NCBI GenBank assembly: GCA_035632135.1
Contig: DASQHK010000491.1
Span: 1-34,690 of the forward strand
Length of the DNA: 34,690 bases
Origin: Bryobacterales bacterium
Lineage (GTDB): Bacteria > Acidobacteriota > Terriglobia > Bryobacterales > JACQDG01
Reading direction: 5' to 3'
A model generated the notes under the pieces. It was not told the origin of the DNA. It did not search any database and worked only from the letters and a program-made list of their open reading frames with translations. How positions within the stretch are numbered: the first letter of the stretch is position 1; every line of letters starts with the position of its first letter. The translations under genes and the position numbers were made by a program. This document shows positions 5,374 through 33,106 of the stretch, in pieces.

Positions 5374-5817
5374 TCACTTGACAAAAATCAATCCAAATTG
5401 GTTGTCCACCACTTCGCCGCCGGGGCCGAAGGTGAAATTCGACGTGATCAGCCCGCTCGCCCCGGCAAACTGCCCTTCGCCGCCATCGATCCGCCACATC
5501 ACCGCGCCGTGCCGCAGCGCCGGGTCCGCGCTGGGCCCCGTGTGTCCCTCGCCCACGGTACTGAAGCGCAGCCGGTTGCCGGCCCCGAAGGTGATGGTCC
5601 CTTTCTCCTGAAACGAATCGTGGCCGGTGATAGTCACCTCCGACTCGAACGTCGCCGTACCGCCGGCCGCAGGCTCGATGCTGCCGCTCAATCCTCGCGC
5701 GCCGACGATGCTGGTGATGGAGCAGCTCGGCGCGCTGGTGGCCGCCTTCCGTGCGTTCGATGCGCTCAGCGGCCCGGCCGAACCCTTAAACTGCATCGCG
5801 TAAATGAGCTGTCGCAT
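5374..5817 (-). CDS. small beta-barrel protein, allene-oxide-cyclase/dirigent-barrel-like (tentative)
   Basis: The start at ATG 5817 (MRQLIYAMQF...) has GGGAGGA 10 nt upstream on the - strand. The track's start at 5886 would overlap pta. The C-terminal IDGGEGQFAGASG motif resembles the GGTGxFxxAxG of AOC/dirigent barrels. The stop abuts the stop of the convergent amidohydrolase (TGATCA). Confidence 0.6.
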   Translation of the reverse strand: MRQLIYAMQFKGSAGPLSASNARKAATSAPSCSITSIVGARGLSGSIEPAAGGTATFESEVTITGHDSFQEKGTITFGAGNRLRFSTVGEGHTGPSADPALRHGAVMWRIDGGEGQFAGASGLITSNFTFGPGGEVVDNQFGLIFVK

Positions 5818-28860: not shown

Positions 28861-28910
28861 GGGACGCGCGCGCCGCGAGCGTGCATATGTGGCATTTTAG
28901 CAAGGTGGGC

Positions 28911-30128
28911 ATGCTGAAGAGCTTTCTGGATTGGCGCGACTCGGGCGAGAAGACCGAAGCGGAGCTGCTGGAGCTTTGCCTGGCGCGCATTCGCGAGCAA
29001 GAGCCGCGGATCCAGGCGTGGGTGGAAGTTTGCCCGCAGCCTGCGCAGACACAGGGTCCGCTGCGAGGTATTCCGTTCGGCGCCAAGGACATCTTCGAAA
29101 CCGCTGGTATGGCGACCGAGTACGGCTCCCCGATCTATGCCGGGCGCAAGGGGCGGCAAGACGCGGGGCTGGTACGCGAACTCAAGGAGCGCGGCGCGGT
29201 ACTGCTTGGCAAGACCCAGACCACGGCGTTCGCCTACTTCGACCCCGCGCCCACGCGCAACCCGCGTAATCTCGAGCACACCCCCGGCGGCAGCTCCAGC
29301 GGCTCGGCGGCGGCGGTAGCGGCGGGCATGGTTCCCTTTGCCCTGGGCAGCCAGACGCAGGGATCGGTGCTGCGCCCGGCTTCGTTCTGCGGCGTGGTGG
29401 GGTTCAAGCCCACACACGGCCTTCTGCCGCTCGAGGGCGTGCTCAGTTTCGCGCCCAGCCTCGACACCGCGGGTCTGTTTACCCCAACCGCCGAAGACAT
29501 GCGCCTGCTGTGGGAGCGGATGGGATTTCCGGTGGATCGCACCGACACGCCGCCGCGGCTGGGCGTGCCGGCCGCTCTGCCGGAACTCGACCCGGCGATG
29601 GAGTGGGAATTCCGGCTGACCGCCACGCGGCTGCGCGCCGCCGGGCTGCGGGTGGAGACGATCGAGTTGCCGCCGGACTTCGCCAAGTTGCGCGCCGCCT
29701 CGAAGCTCATCAATGACTATGAGGGCGCGCGCACGCACCGGGAGCGCTGGCGCGAGCACGGCCTGCGCATCGGCTGGAAGCTCGCGCAGATGGTCGCCGA
29801 AGGCCTGCGCATCCCGAGCGAGGAGTATGCCGCGGCGCTCGGGACGGTGGCGCAAGTGAAACAGGAAATGGCGAAGATGTTTGAGCAAGTCCCGGTGATC
29901 CTGACGCCCGCCGCCCCCGGGCCGGCCCCGGCCGGACTCGCGTCAACCGGCGATCCGCGGATGAATTCGCCCTGGACGGCATTAGGAGTACCTGCCATCT
30001 CCATCCCCATGCCGGCGGGGGACGGCCTCCCGCTCGGCTTGCAGATGACGGCGGGCGCAGGGCGTGACGGTTTCCTGGTGGCAGTGGCGGGGGAATTGGA
30101 ACCACAGATGAACACAGATGAACACTGA
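28911..30128 (+). CDS. amidase-signature (AS) family amidase
   Basis: GIPFGAKDIFETAGMATEYGS and the AS motif GGSSSGSAAAVAAGMVPFALGSQTQGSVLRPASFCG. The start is uncertain: ATG 28911 preceded by AAGGTGG, or alternatively 28881/28887. The last residues (EPQMNTDEH) and the TGA stop lie inside inverted-repeat copy A. Confidence 0.85.
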   Translation: MLKSFLDWRDSGEKTEAELLELCLARIREQEPRIQAWVEVCPQPAQTQGPLRGIPFGAKDIFETAGMATEYGSPIYAGRKGRQDAGLVRELKERGAVLLGKTQTTAFAYFDPAPTRNPRNLEHTPGGSSSGSAAAVAAGMVPFALGSQTQGSVLRPASFCGVVGFKPTHGLLPLEGVLSFAPSLDTAGLFTPTAEDMRLLWERMGFPVDRTDTPPRLGVPAALPELDPAMEWEFRLTATRLRAAGLRVETIELPPDFAKLRAASKLINDYEGARTHRERWREHGLRIGWKLAQMVAEGLRIPSEEYAAALGTVAQVKQEMAKMFEQVPVILTPAAPGPAPAGLASTGDPRMNSPWTALGVPAISIPMPAGDGLPLGLQMTAGAGRDGFLVAVAGELEPQMNTDEH

Positions 30129-30134
30129 TTAGAA
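30098..30134. repeat. inverted-repeat copy A (GGAACCACAGATGAACACAGATGAACACTGATTAGAA)
   Basis: Matches the reverse complement of 30483..30519 at 33 of 37 positions, counted by hand. Internally it contains the 10-mer CACAGATGAA twice in tandem. Confidence 0.85.
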
Positions 30135-30482
30135 CCCGTTGATGACGCGCTTAATCTGGAGCTTCGGAGCGCCGAAGTTGACCAAGAGACAAATGCCGAG
30201 GCCGGCTGCCTTGAGGTAGTTCAGGCACTGCGCCATGTGGACCTCATCGAACTGGCGGACCACCTTTAGCTCCACGAGCACGCTATCTTCAACGAGCAGG
30301 TCGGCGACATATTCGCCCACGATCACGTCCCGGTATCGCACGCGGAGTGCCTTCTGCTGTTCCACGGCAAGCCCGGCCTGCCGCAATTCGTAGGCCAGCG
30401 AGTTTTCGTAGACCTTTTCGGGGAAACCGCAACCCAAGGTGTTGGCCACCACATAACAACGCCCAATGATTTTTTCGGTCAT
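30129..30482 (-). CDS. GxxExxY protein (PD-(D/E)XK nuclease-like superfamily)
   Basis: MTEKIIGRCYVVANTLGCGFPEKVYENSLAYELRQAGL carries the G-F-P-E-K-V-Y signature. DLLVEDSVLVELK is a D...E-x-K nuclease-type motif. The alternative start at 30521 would add MEPQMNTDKHGSE, encoded by repeat copy B, and would overlap comEC. Confidence 0.8.
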   Translation of the reverse strand: MTEKIIGRCYVVANTLGCGFPEKVYENSLAYELRQAGLAVEQQKALRVRYRDVIVGEYVADLLVEDSVLVELKVVRQFDEVHMAQCLNYLKAAGLGICLLVNFGAPKLQIKRVINGF

Positions 30483-30519
30483 TTCTGATCCGTGTTTATC
30501 TGTGTTCATCTGCGGTTCC
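30483..30519. repeat. inverted-repeat copy B (reverse complement GGAACCGCAGATGAACACAGATAAACACGGATCAGAA)
   Basis: Partner of 30098..30134. Lies immediately upstream of the GxxExxY ATG (30482). Contains most of the last four codons (WNRR; the W codon runs 1 nt past the repeat) and the TGA stop of comEC. Confidence 0.85.
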
Positions 30520-33106
30520 ATTCGTATGCCCCAACCGACAGCCGGTGACCGTCGGTTTCGATGCTTACAGCGCCGTCGCGGTCGGTGCGAAAAACGGTCG
30601 CGCGATGGTCGGCCAGGCGTGAGAGCACGTCGCCATTGGGATGGCCGTAAGGGTTGTCGAAGCCGGCCGAGACCACCGCGAACCAGGGACGCACTCCATC
30701 GAGGAAGGTTTCGCTCGACGAGGTCTTACTGCCGTGGTGAGCCACCTTGAGAACGTCGGCATGCCCCAGCAAGCCGTCGTCGGCAAGGCGGCGCTCGGAC
30801 CTCTGCTCGATGTCGCCCGTCAGCAGGAAACTGCGGTCGCCGAAACTGGCTCGCAGCACGATCGAATCGTCGTTAGCGGGCTTGGCGCGCGGCACATAGT
30901 CAGGGGGCGGCGCGAGCACCGTGAACCGGACTCCGCCCAATCGCCGCTCCTCGCCGCGGCAGAGGCGCACCAGGCGCACGCCCCGCCGCCTGGCCGTATC
31001 GAGGGCGCGATCGTAGTCGGGCGAAGGCGGGTTCGAGCCGATCCACAATTCGCGCACGCGAAAGTTTTCAAGCAGCGCCGGCAGGCCTCCAATGTGGTCG
31101 TAGTGGGCATGCGAGACGACGACCACGTCGAGCGTCCGAATCTCCCGCGACCACAGATAGGGAGAGACCACCTCCTCGCCGATGTCCGGCATCTGCGTAT
31201 TCGTTCCGCCAAAGGTGGCGAGGCCGCCGGTGTCCACCAGCATGGTTTGACCCTGCGGCAGGGCGAGGAACAGCGCATCGCCCTGGCCCACGTCAAGCGC
31301 GGTCACCTCGAGTTTTCCCCGGTCCAGATGCGGGGCAAAGGGCGACACCGCCAGCCCGGCGACGGCGGCCAGCAAAGCCAGGAACGCGGCGCCCACGGCC
31401 AGCCTCGGCCAAAACCCGGCGCGCGGCCGGGGACGATTGCGGCCTTCTACGATAACCCGCGGCGGCCGCTGCCGGTCGAGCAGCCAGGCCACGGCGGCGA
31501 GCGCTGCCGCAAACGCCACGGCGAACCAAGCTGGCGGGATGGGCACGCGCGCCTCGAGCCACCGCCAGCGGGCGTGCCACTCGACGATCCAGACCATCGC
31601 CGCCACCAGCAGCGCCAGCGCGTGCCCCAGCAGAGGCCAGCCGGTAAGTACGGTTGCAAAGCCCAGCGGGACAATCAGGCCGATCAAGGGTACTACGAAT
31701 ACATTTGCGGAAAGGCCGCTCCACGCCAGACGGTGGAACTGGATCGCCATGGGCAGGGCGAGGCCAATCTGCACCGACGCCGAAACCACCACCAGTTCGG
31801 CGATGGCCACCAGGGGCCGAACCGCCCAGCAAAGCACCGCCATGGAAATCCGCGGCACAAACGGCAAACGGCCGGCTGCGGTGCGCCACGCGACGCGGAT
31901 GTGCGCGACTTTCGGCTCCAGATGCATGTCACGGCTGCGATCTGGCAGATCGGCCAGGGCCAGCCGATAGGGCTCCAGCGTTCGCTCCAAAATCGGAACG
32001 GCCAGGGCGGCGATCGTGCCTACCGAGAGAAACGACAACTGGAAGCTGACGTCAAACAAACCGGCCGGGTCGGCGGCAAGCATCGCCAGCGCGACGCCCG
32101 CCATGATATTGAGCGCCCGGCGCTGGCGGTAGAAGACGCGGGCCAGCAGATAGGCCGCCACCATCGCTGCCGCGCGAACCGTGGGCAAGCGCGAGCCGCA
32201 CAGCAAGACGAAGCCTATTAGCACGACCATCACCGCCAGCGACGCCAGCCCCCGCGGGACCCGCAGCAGCCGGAACAGAAAAAGAAAGAACCACGCCAGC
32301 GCGCCAACGTGGAGGCCGGCGACCACCAGCGCGTGGTAGGCGCCGGTGCGCTGGAACGAGACGCCGAGGCTGCGATCGATATAGGCTGCGTCGCCCAGCA
32401 GCATGGCTTTCACGACGCCGGCCGCAGTGGACCCCGCGCCCAGCAGCCGGTCGATTCGCCCCTCGGCCCACTCGCGCGTTGTCCAGATGAGCGCCAGAAC
32501 CCGGCTGCCGCGCCGGCCCGCGAGGCGCCGGAAGGGAACGCCGGCGCGCACCGTGGCCGTCATCTCGATGCCCTGGCGGCGCAGGAAGGTCACGCGGTCG
32601 AAGCCGCCCGGGTCCTGGAAGTTGTGAGGAAGGCGCAGACGGGCCAGAAACTCTACATGGTCGCCGTAGTGCAGATCGGCCGGAGGCTCGCCTGGACGGC
32701 GGACCACCGTCACGCGCACGCCGCCGCCGGCCGGAGTGCTCTGGCCGATCGCTTCCACGGCCAGCGCGAACTGATCGCGATCGGCGCGGACCGTGGGTGG
32801 AACGCGCACCCAGCCGCTTAAGCGAACGGGATCCCGCAGGTCGAGCCGCTCGCGCGCCACCACAAAGTCGATGCGATCCGGTTCCAGCGGCGCAGGCTGC
32901 GATGCCGCCAGGGCGCCGGCGAGAGCAAAGCCGGCGAGGCAGGCGGCCGTGCCCGCGTGCGGCGCTCCACGCCACAACCCGAGCAGAGAGAGGGCCAGCA
33001 AAAGCAGAACGCCCAGGGACAGCTCGCGGAAGGAGAACGTGGCGCATTGCGCTGCCACGACGCCGGCCGCATAAGCCGCGAGCGGCGCCACCAGCGGATA
33101 TTTCAT
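30506..33106 (-). CDS. comEC: DNA internalisation-related competence protein ComEC/Rec2 (with C-terminal MBL domain)
   Basis: 866 aa, polytopic membrane N-terminal and central region. C-terminal metallo-beta-lactamase domain (LDVGQGDALFL...VVVSHAHYDHIGG...LKVAHHGSKTSS). The start lies 6 nt after the rumA-like stop. Confidence 0.9.
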   Translation of the reverse strand: MKYPLVAPLAAYAAGVVAAQCATFSFRELSLGVLLLLALSLLGLWRGAPHAGTAACLAGFALAGALAASQPAPLEPDRIDFVVARERLDLRDPVRLSGWVRVPPTVRADRDQFALAVEAIGQSTPAGGGVRVTVVRRPGEPPADLHYGDHVEFLARLRLPHNFQDPGGFDRVTFLRRQGIEMTATVRAGVPFRRLAGRRGSRVLALIWTTREWAEGRIDRLLGAGSTAAGVVKAMLLGDAAYIDRSLGVSFQRTGAYHALVVAGLHVGALAWFFLFLFRLLRVPRGLASLAVMVVLIGFVLLCGSRLPTVRAAAMVAAYLLARVFYRQRRALNIMAGVALAMLAADPAGLFDVSFQLSFLSVGTIAALAVPILERTLEPYRLALADLPDRSRDMHLEPKVAHIRVAWRTAAGRLPFVPRISMAVLCWAVRPLVAIAELVVVSASVQIGLALPMAIQFHRLAWSGLSANVFVVPLIGLIVPLGFATVLTGWPLLGHALALLVAAMVWIVEWHARWRWLEARVPIPPAWFAVAFAAALAAVAWLLDRQRPPRVIVEGRNRPRPRAGFWPRLAVGAAFLALLAAVAGLAVSPFAPHLDRGKLEVTALDVGQGDALFLALPQGQTMLVDTGGLATFGGTNTQMPDIGEEVVSPYLWSREIRTLDVVVVSHAHYDHIGGLPALLENFRVRELWIGSNPPSPDYDRALDTARRRGVRLVRLCRGEERRLGGVRFTVLAPPPDYVPRAKPANDDSIVLRASFGDRSFLLTGDIEQRSERRLADDGLLGHADVLKVAHHGSKTSSSETFLDGVRPWFAVVSAGFDNPYGHPNGDVLSRLADHRATVFRTDRDGAVSIETDGHRLSVGAYEWNRR

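Follow-up and report, generated by a model that had tools for sequence, protein, structure and literature searches.

The window analysed here, a stretch of 34,690 nucleotides that forms the entire contig DASQHK010000491.1 of a Bryobacterales (Acidobacteriota) metagenome-assembled genome (MAG), carries a small GxxExxY gene that is enclosed by two long inverted repeats (the arms) and lodged between a convergent amidase gene and comEC. On balance we favour the explanation that positions 30097-30520 of the window are a copy of a palindromic element that belongs to a widespread family, namely a promoterless and probably mobile nuclease cassette at the DNA level, and we infer that the nuclease drives the mobility of this cassette. 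The features of the locus, with the type of evidence for each, are as follows:

30097 to 30134, no strand: arm A, the left inverted repeat, 38 nt (repeat search)
30483 to 30520, no strand: arm B, the right inverted repeat, 38 nt, 89% complementary to arm A (repeat search)
30129 to 30482, minus strand: GxxExxY / PDDEXK_3 gene, 117 aa plus stop, the sole gene between the arms (profile matches)
30483 to 30509, minus strand: in-frame upstream extension of the GxxExxY open reading frame (MNTDKHGSE-), encoded by arm B (translation)
28881 to 30128, plus strand: amidase (PF01425), host gene, convergent with the cassette gene (profile match)
30102 to 30128, plus strand: arm-encoded C-terminal tail of the amidase (PQMNTDEH) with its TGA at 30126-30128, in arm A (translation, homologs)
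30506 to 33106, minus strand: ComEC/Rec2 (TIGR00361), host gene, co-directional with and directly upstream of the GxxExxY gene (profile match)
30506 to 30520, minus strand: arm-encoded tail of ComEC (W-NRR) with its TGA at 30508-30506, in arm B (translation, ortholog)

A preliminary description of this locus, made by reading the sequence, had matched the two repeats at 33 of 37 positions, and the 38-nt arms found by the repeat search, which lie 348 nt apart, are consistent with that reading. Arm A consists of TGGAACC followed by 10-mers at 30103-30112 and 30113-30122 and by a decayed third unit at 30123-30132, the first two being the tandem copies of CACAGATGAA that had been noted before (30103-30122). 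A 23-mer core has just two sites in the 34.7-kb window, which are the two arms, and none of 100 dinucleotide shuffles contained two core matches. The lone gene between the arms, already annotated by NCBI as 'GxxExxY protein', has the motif G19xxE22xxY25 together with D61 and E71-L-K73; its ATG (30482) adjoins arm B and its TAA stop (30131-30129) adjoins the amidase stop, while the ATG of the arm-encoded extension (30509-30507) overlaps the ComEC stop (30508-30506) as ATGA. As had also been proposed, both host genes terminate on a TGA within an arm: the amidase ends in ...ELEPQMNTDEH, where the arm tail stands in for the native tail of homologs, and ComEC ends in ...WNRR, its native tail in an ortholog being ...AWEQRSARAPR. 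Read on the plus strand, arm A has stops in all three frames (TGA at arm positions 13, 23 and 30; TAG at 34), and on the minus strand TGA and TAA in arm B shut two frames while the GxxExxY frame stays open. The cassette is the stretch of 428 nt with the lowest guanine-cytosine (GC) content on the contig (0.544 versus 0.657 ± 0.033). No promoter-like or terminator-like site was found between 29600 and 31000, and comEC is the likely source of transcription for the GxxExxY gene.

Comparison with orthologous junctions revealed that the cassette is an insertion at the DNA level and that empty, occupied, replaced and decayed states occur at one site. The view of the preliminary description that this is a discrete insertion module, and not ordinary intergenic DNA, is thereby borne out, because empty junctions exist in relatives (L224; L240, L241 and L242). 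Locus L224 keeps the order NAD-synthase / amidase with a convergent comEC, whose product is 66% identical to that of the window; its amidase and comEC stop codons are 44 nt apart with neither hairpin nor gene between them, and the native tails of both proteins are longer. The amidase of L224 ends with ...GAG CAC AGA TGA (L224:3741-3751), so that a solo unit-like CACAGATGA supplies its stop. By expectation the entire L224 locus would contain about 0.04 such 9-mers; the one observed may be left over from a lost arm or may be a proto-target. Two loci that had served as a first empty-site comparison (L201 and L203) were uninformative, the amidase being kept but its comEC neighbour not. The divergent NAD+ synthase / amidase pair (window:27211-30128; L201, L224, L225) is kept across Bryobacterales relatives, and the gene downstream of the amidase differs among them (ComEC, an MBL-fold protein or a permease).

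The states of a single site are best seen in peat Acidobacteria, where a GxxExxY gene lies between lolC-like and lolE-like genes. This junction is empty in L240, L241 and L242, which have a spacer of 2-6 nt (...ACGGAGTAA TCGG ATGACC...), and it is occupied by a cassette of 437 nt in L208 and of 430 nt in L216, with both flanking ORFs intact and with different arm variants in the two cassettes. At this site the flanks are 81-89% identical in nucleotide sequence and the cassettes 60-66%, and synonymous divergence (pS) is 0.41-0.48 for the flanking genes versus 0.89 for GxxExxY. The closest relative (L243:1626-2000) has a third cassette that is decaying: arms and GxxExxY motif are kept, the D...ExK segment is deleted and no gene is called. 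No duplicated flanking base was found when empty and occupied lolC-lolE junctions were compared, nor was a target-site duplication seen across 81 hairpins, whose flanking direct repeats were as long as those of the control; the ATT outside both arms of the window is present as described and, as had been judged at the outset, it is not such a duplication.

To determine how regularly GxxExxY genes are enclosed in this way, we picked 80 metagenomic loci by protein similarity alone, which provided 69 testable genes, and counted inverted repeats that span the gene as arms if they exceeded the 99th percentile of a shuffled control. Hairpin arms of the same kind as those in the window span 60 of the 69 genes, and nearly all of them are tandem 10-mers in which ACAGAT, GCAGAT, GCCGAT, ACGGAT or ACCGAT is followed by RAAC. 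Distant members (36-48% identity) from Bacteroides, Treponema and Fusobacteria retain the architecture. On a Bacteroides finegoldii plasmid (NZ_OY725952.1, L206:1425-1896), a 40%-identical GxxExxY gene sits between radA and a gene for a flavin adenine dinucleotide-dependent protein, within 30-nt arms that are 90% complementary and built from tandem 9-mers (ACAGAGGAC), a related but different unit; in Treponema and Fusobacteria the arms are shorter, consisting of CACACGGAT or CACAGAT. The family itself is large, with 13,833 cluster representatives at 50% identity (E<=1e-3), and the earlier remark on multi-copy GxxExxY families and on repeat-encoded peptides matches these data. Four members (P0361, P0362, P0375 and P0390) are 250-270 aa long and have two GxxExxY stretches, representing tandem fusions or duplications.

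The repeat also exists without the gene. Scanning species-representative genomes with a degenerate 21-mer that matches both arms (CAGATGAACACAGATRAACAC), we found that the repeat is not unique to the window, as a dispersed element would predict, but matches in at least 120 genome stretches; counts here refer to such stretches. At least eight bacterial phyla contain hairpins, with representatives among Acidobacteriota, Planctomycetota, Cyanobacteria, Gamma-, Beta- and Deltaproteobacteria, NC10, Chloroflexota, Abditibacteria and Bacteroidales. Neighbouring copies are mostly convergent (71 in +/- versus 9 in -/+ orientation), and the unit is therefore 5'-..CC(ACAGATGAAC)x3..loop..(GTTCATCTGT)x3GG..-3', with a loop that is mostly 2-200 nt long in the hairpins found with the 21-mer. 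The majority of copies are gene-less hairpins of 50-250 nt, and stem free energies range from -23 to -103 kcal/mol, mainly -40 or lower. Gene-sized loops were present in four of the matches listed (the window, L018, L034 and L118), and all four contain GxxExxY; when ORFs of any kind bounded by hairpins were scanned for, no further cargo within arms of this type came to light. Just outside the arm, 53% of gene-less hairpins have at least 5 T in 8 nt (background 12%), and the sequence upstream of gene-less hairpins is A-rich. Searched against Rfam, the window element and six short hairpins returned only sub-threshold look-alikes of miRNA precursors.

Phages and plasmids were considered as vehicles and rejected as rare, with only 13 hairpin matches and one gene match in 2.9 million viral contigs and with five plasmid records carrying the element. 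Spread into Archaea was likewise rejected: the match in Methanolobus sp. WCC5 (L114:6852-6882) is a solo tandem array and not a hairpin, and the family claim is therefore restricted to Bacteria. This array, which lies downstream of glnA within a different 15-nt inverted repeat, and one in a Cloacimonadota MAG (L098:2867-2897) are tandem 10-mers without a partner arm. Other departures from the simple hairpin include a near-identical pair with 30 nt between its members (L015:5568-5674 and 5705-5811) and an array of one 5' arm with several 3' arms (L084:1-250), so that local amplification of hairpins apparently occurs. At L046:446-609 a hairpin of a second repeat type (CCACAGGGGACACAGAG... / ...CCTCTGTGTCCTCTGTGG) is nested in the loop of a ACAGATGAAC-type hairpin, which suggests either that loops are targets for insertion or a stacking of hairpin families. 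Some hairpins have TTATCCACA / TGTGGATAA at their outer ends (L080:7889-7968; L083:2957-3103), which we take to be identical to the DnaA-box consensus of Escherichia coli, a resemblance that may be coincidental.

Each arm comprises about three tandem 10-bp units with the profile R-C-n-G-A-T-r-a-A-C. Positions 2, 4-6, 9 and 10 of the unit are nearly fixed and positions 3, 7 and 8 differ between arms in 17-27%, whereas position 1 has A and G in roughly equal shares among elements and yet agrees between the arms of one element; units are homogenised within an element. Mismatches between arms show no G-U bias on either transcript (48 versus 48 among 169 mismatches, 73 of which are transversions). 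Selection is thus on specific bases with a 10-nt period and not evenly on pairing. With TGA or TAA repeated at steps of 10 nt, a spacing that is no multiple of 3, a run of three units puts a stop into every frame: 130 of 226 arms close three frames and a further 83 close two. At 35% of arms, versus 7% of control positions, an upstream frame that is open for 100 codons or more terminates within the arm, and in 40 of 53 elements the two frames not used by the gene are both shut by the gene-proximal arm. The distal arm of the window closes all three frames, but this applies to only 7 of 53 elements and was dropped as a rule. Most homologs have no Met at the start of the conserved core, and the ATG of an arm unit is their start (MNTDEHRLNE, MNADERRLNE). 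The arm can therefore be described as a natural, compact module for three-frame translation stop and restart, and several annotation artefacts are accounted for by it, namely repeat-encoded tails of host proteins, N-terminal extensions of the MNTDEHR type and spurious ORFs of the ICVHL type. In gene-less hairpins (e.g. L053:2948-3047 and L068:3493-3601), both strands have a purine-rich tract resembling a Shine-Dalgarno sequence, an ATG and a mini-ORF of seven codons (MNTDEHR-stop).

By sequence and by predicted structure, the protein looks like a minimal PD-(D/E)XK nuclease of the RecB/Cas4/lambda-exonuclease type and is predicted to be active. The hidden Markov model search proposed earlier assigns it over its full length to PF13366 (134.9 bits against a cut-off of 22, E=2e-39) and TIGR04256 (141.1 bits against a cut-off of 35, E=2e-41). 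Its G19-F-P-E22-K-V-Y25 motif, D61 and E71-L-K73 are invariant in 60 homologs; the full set of invariant residues (E22/E26, D61, E71-x-K73 and Q85-xxx-Y89) fits the RecB-family motifs (E, D, ExK, QxxxY), an assignment that is our own. An AlphaFold2 model built with the 60 homologs has a predicted local distance difference test score (pLDDT) of 96.1, and Foldseek places it nearest to LHK-Exo, Cas4 SSO0001 (TMq 0.62, root-mean-square deviation 3.6 Å), lambda exonuclease and MGME1, with Hjc and tRNA-splicing endonuclease folds more distant. A sequence search of the PDB returned no solved homolog, PADLOC matched no defence component or known system model apart from a faint Cas4 echo (E=0.017), and no transposase family was recognised, PDDEXK_3 being the sole Pfam match. 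By codon comparison of the cassette genes at the lolC-lolE site (nonsynonymous divergence, pN, 0.18 versus a pS of 0.89 that is saturated), the protein is under purifying selection. A tiny nuclease that is associated with a defined sequence could be of interest to tool developers.

These observations can be joined into one scheme. The long form of the element, presumably autonomous, holds the promoterless 117-aa GxxExxY gene in its loop, and the window copy entered between the convergent amidase and comEC genes, displacing their last codons and a short spacer. As GATGAAC/GATAAAC puts TGA/TAA at three offsets, and so in three frames, an entering host ORF is shut at once; the gene-proximal arm leaves only the nuclease frame open and provides an ATG. 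Because this ATG lies on the ComEC stop and the frame through the proximal arm is open, the nuclease is probably expressed by read-through transcription of comEC, and its translation may be coupled to that of comEC. The nuclease would then act on arms or target junctions and start recombination-based copying, in the manner of homing or gene conversion and without duplicating the target. Hairpins that have no gene would be non-autonomous or decayed derivatives of the gene-bearing form, and the T tracts next to them make it plausible that some have been co-opted by the host as bidirectional terminators. A further-reaching idea we put forward tentatively, as a possibility with the odds against it: GxxExxY cassettes may represent a new class of prokaryotic mobile element in its autonomous form, in which a minimal RecB/Cas4-like nuclease, expressed parasitically from host transcripts, recognises a 10-bp-periodic repeat and copies the hairpin cassette. 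If true, this class would target ORF-boundary junctions or resident gene-less hairpins without target duplication, its arms would be 'designed' to end host ORFs in every frame and to begin that of the nuclease, and its mechanism would lie apart from DDE, HUH, serine/tyrosine recombinase and Cas1-based mobility.

Several findings weigh against a mobile nuclease cassette. No gene remnants were detected in gene-less loops, and the excess divergence of the lolC-lolE cassettes could derive partly from a locally raised mutation rate and not from replacement. Many samples of a lineage share the same insertion, and movement is therefore not rapid. Arm variants essentially do not track protein similarity (0.597 versus 0.586), which is not what tight co-specialisation of enzyme and site would predict. 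The ATGA overlap of the window is uncommon elsewhere (about 2 of 40 elements), and we do not generalise it as a coupling device. Finally, neighbouring proteins of the nearest relatives are only ~66-73% identical to those of the window, and the boundaries of its insertion are therefore not settable to the base level.

Of the three interpretations offered in the preliminary description, a selfish or MITE-like (miniature inverted-repeat transposable element) cassette is the best supported, with gene-less derivatives, turnover, a decaying copy, low GC and a selected, intact nuclease on its side; the term 'MITE-like' needs qualifying, since neither a target-site duplication nor a transposase of any known family is present. 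The interpretation as a bidirectional stop or insulator holds at the level of translation, where arms close two or three frames and terminate long upstream frames far more often than control positions do, and divides at the level of transcription, T tracts being frequent at gene-less copies while the window copy is without a terminator-like site. A rival explanation is a domesticated mutualism akin to REPIN/RAYT, in which the hairpins primarily serve the host as bidirectional intrinsic terminators, three-frame translation stops and stabilisers of mRNA 3' ends and GxxExxY is not a selfish element but a vertically kept 'caretaker' nuclease that replicates or homogenises them. T tracts at 53% of gene-less hairpins versus 12%, A-rich sequence upstream, the location of hairpins at gene 3' ends, the long retention of insertions within a lineage and the homogenisation of units all fit such a role, and REPIN doublets share both the A/T flanks and the flanked enzyme gene (PMC3337134). 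We nonetheless regard it as unlikely: at orthologous sites the cassettes show turnover, decay and absence, their GC looks foreign, the window copy has no T tract, arms ~350 nt apart in gene-bearing copies make a poor geometry for an intrinsic terminator, and near-identical arms across phyla suggest horizontal spread.

An RNA-level element, the remaining earlier interpretation, would form a ~38-bp stem on the comEC transcript that RNase III cuts, releasing or insulating a monocistronic GxxExxY mRNA. In silico the arms do pair in the gene-sense minimum free energy fold (-192.6 kcal/mol, z = -6.0), a start codon inside the stem would permit structural control of translation, and there is a parallel in Coxiella burnetii's 23S rRNA intervening sequence (IVS), which has 428 nt, a 28-bp terminal stem and a small ORF and is cut by RNase III (PMC4990558). 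The lack of wobble bias and the many transversions among arm mismatches, conservation that is position-specific with a 10-nt period and not pairing-wide, the symmetry of the element and its presence in every gene-orientation context, and the absence of an Rfam family match all speak against it; since presence/absence, turnover and dispersal would also be left unexplained, we hold this to be somewhat less probable than the mutualism. The weak similarity of the protein to Cas4, by sequence and by fold, and its strong conservation could alternatively mark GxxExxY as an ordinary cellular or defence nuclease, non-mobile and in a peculiar conserved expression cassette, with the dispersed hairpins an unrelated repeat family that has no more than sequence in common with it. 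This is improbable, as the protein lies outside every known defence system model and is seldom found on viral contigs or plasmids, the arm type of 60 of 69 genes is also that of gene-less hairpins, and the insertion loci are unrelated to each other (one is mid-operon) and have empty counterparts. A chance inverted repeat or an assembly artefact, which the MAG origin of the contig might suggest, can be virtually dismissed, given that no shuffle reproduced the pair and that the architecture recurs in hundreds of independent assemblies and isolate genomes.

Among known systems, the closest layout is that of REPIN/RAYT, in which inverted hairpin doublets are associated with an IS200-like Y1 transposase that has HUH and Y motifs (PMC3337134). 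Shared with it are dispersed inverted doublets with a short spacer that lie mainly in extragenic positions at gene ends, with runs of A upstream and runs of T downstream, a small gene for the enzyme that is flanked by the same inverted repeats, and gene-less copies that far outnumber the gene-bearing ones. By contrast, the enzyme here is a 117-aa PD-(D/E)XK protein that lacks the defining features of an HUH/Y1 transposase, the arms are tandem 10-mers whereas REPs are short and self-palindromic, and the gene lies within the hairpin loop, with arms that provide its stop and start codons. Moreover, near-identical arms are found across phyla whereas REPs are lineage-specific, and cassettes turn over at a site with no enzyme-repeat pairing detected. 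Turnover at one site, together with the missing correlation between protein and arm variant, argues against a single-copy, vertically inherited, repeat-paired enzyme, which is a REPIN/RAYT trait. The system may be a second, enzymatically unrelated counterpart of REPIN/RAYT and a possible new route of DNA mobility.

Insertion sequences and MITEs resemble the family in having terminal inverted repeats round one small gene, many short non-autonomous forms, decaying copies and low GC, but the present family lacks target-site duplications as well as a DDE, serine or tyrosine transposase, and its insertions are non-disruptive, at ORF boundaries. To our knowledge, all known transposases are also much larger than the GxxExxY protein. 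Homing endonuclease genes, including those of the PD-(D/E)XK type, offer the likeness of a small nuclease gene that precisely occupies a conserved site empty in relatives, of invasion, decay, loss or re-invasion at one site without target duplication, and of purifying selection while intact; they are unlike it in that the present family has long inverted tandem-repeat arms, lies outside introns and inteins, uses many unrelated sites and has abundant gene-less hairpin relatives. With the 23S rRNA IVS it has in common a size of ~430 nt, a stem of ~28-38 bp, one small and decay-prone ORF and a sporadic, horizontally acquired look, whereas it occupies protein-coding loci and not rRNA helices, encodes a nuclease and not the four-helix-bundle S23p of the Coxiella IVS, and lacks an RNA-type mismatch bias. 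Cas4, RecB and lambda exonuclease share fold and catalytic motif set (and, for Cas4, the faint profile echo) with a protein that is about half their size, lacks an Fe-S cysteine cluster as well as any helicase or Cas partner, and is encoded by a stand-alone gene in a hairpin.

No published description of the family, of PF13366/TIGR04256 GxxExxY proteins, of the repeat or of its peptides was found in full text, although the work of Elhai et al. (2008), reportedly on small dispersed repeats of cyanobacteria, may overlap. In a survey of PD-(D/E)XK proteins from 2012, PDDEXK_3 is listed as 'Unknown'. The association described here ties this orphan family to a cross-phylum hairpin repeat and thereby gives GxxExxY a testable role. 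One IMG/VR contig that contains the 21-mer also has, on its minus strand (L227:9244-9894), an ORF of ~216 aa with its own flanking 37-nt palindromes and with RRLPHW and HVHVLL, motifs that we take to be characteristic of Y1 REP-associated transposases. The arrangement resembles a classical RAYT-like unit beside the new type of hairpin.

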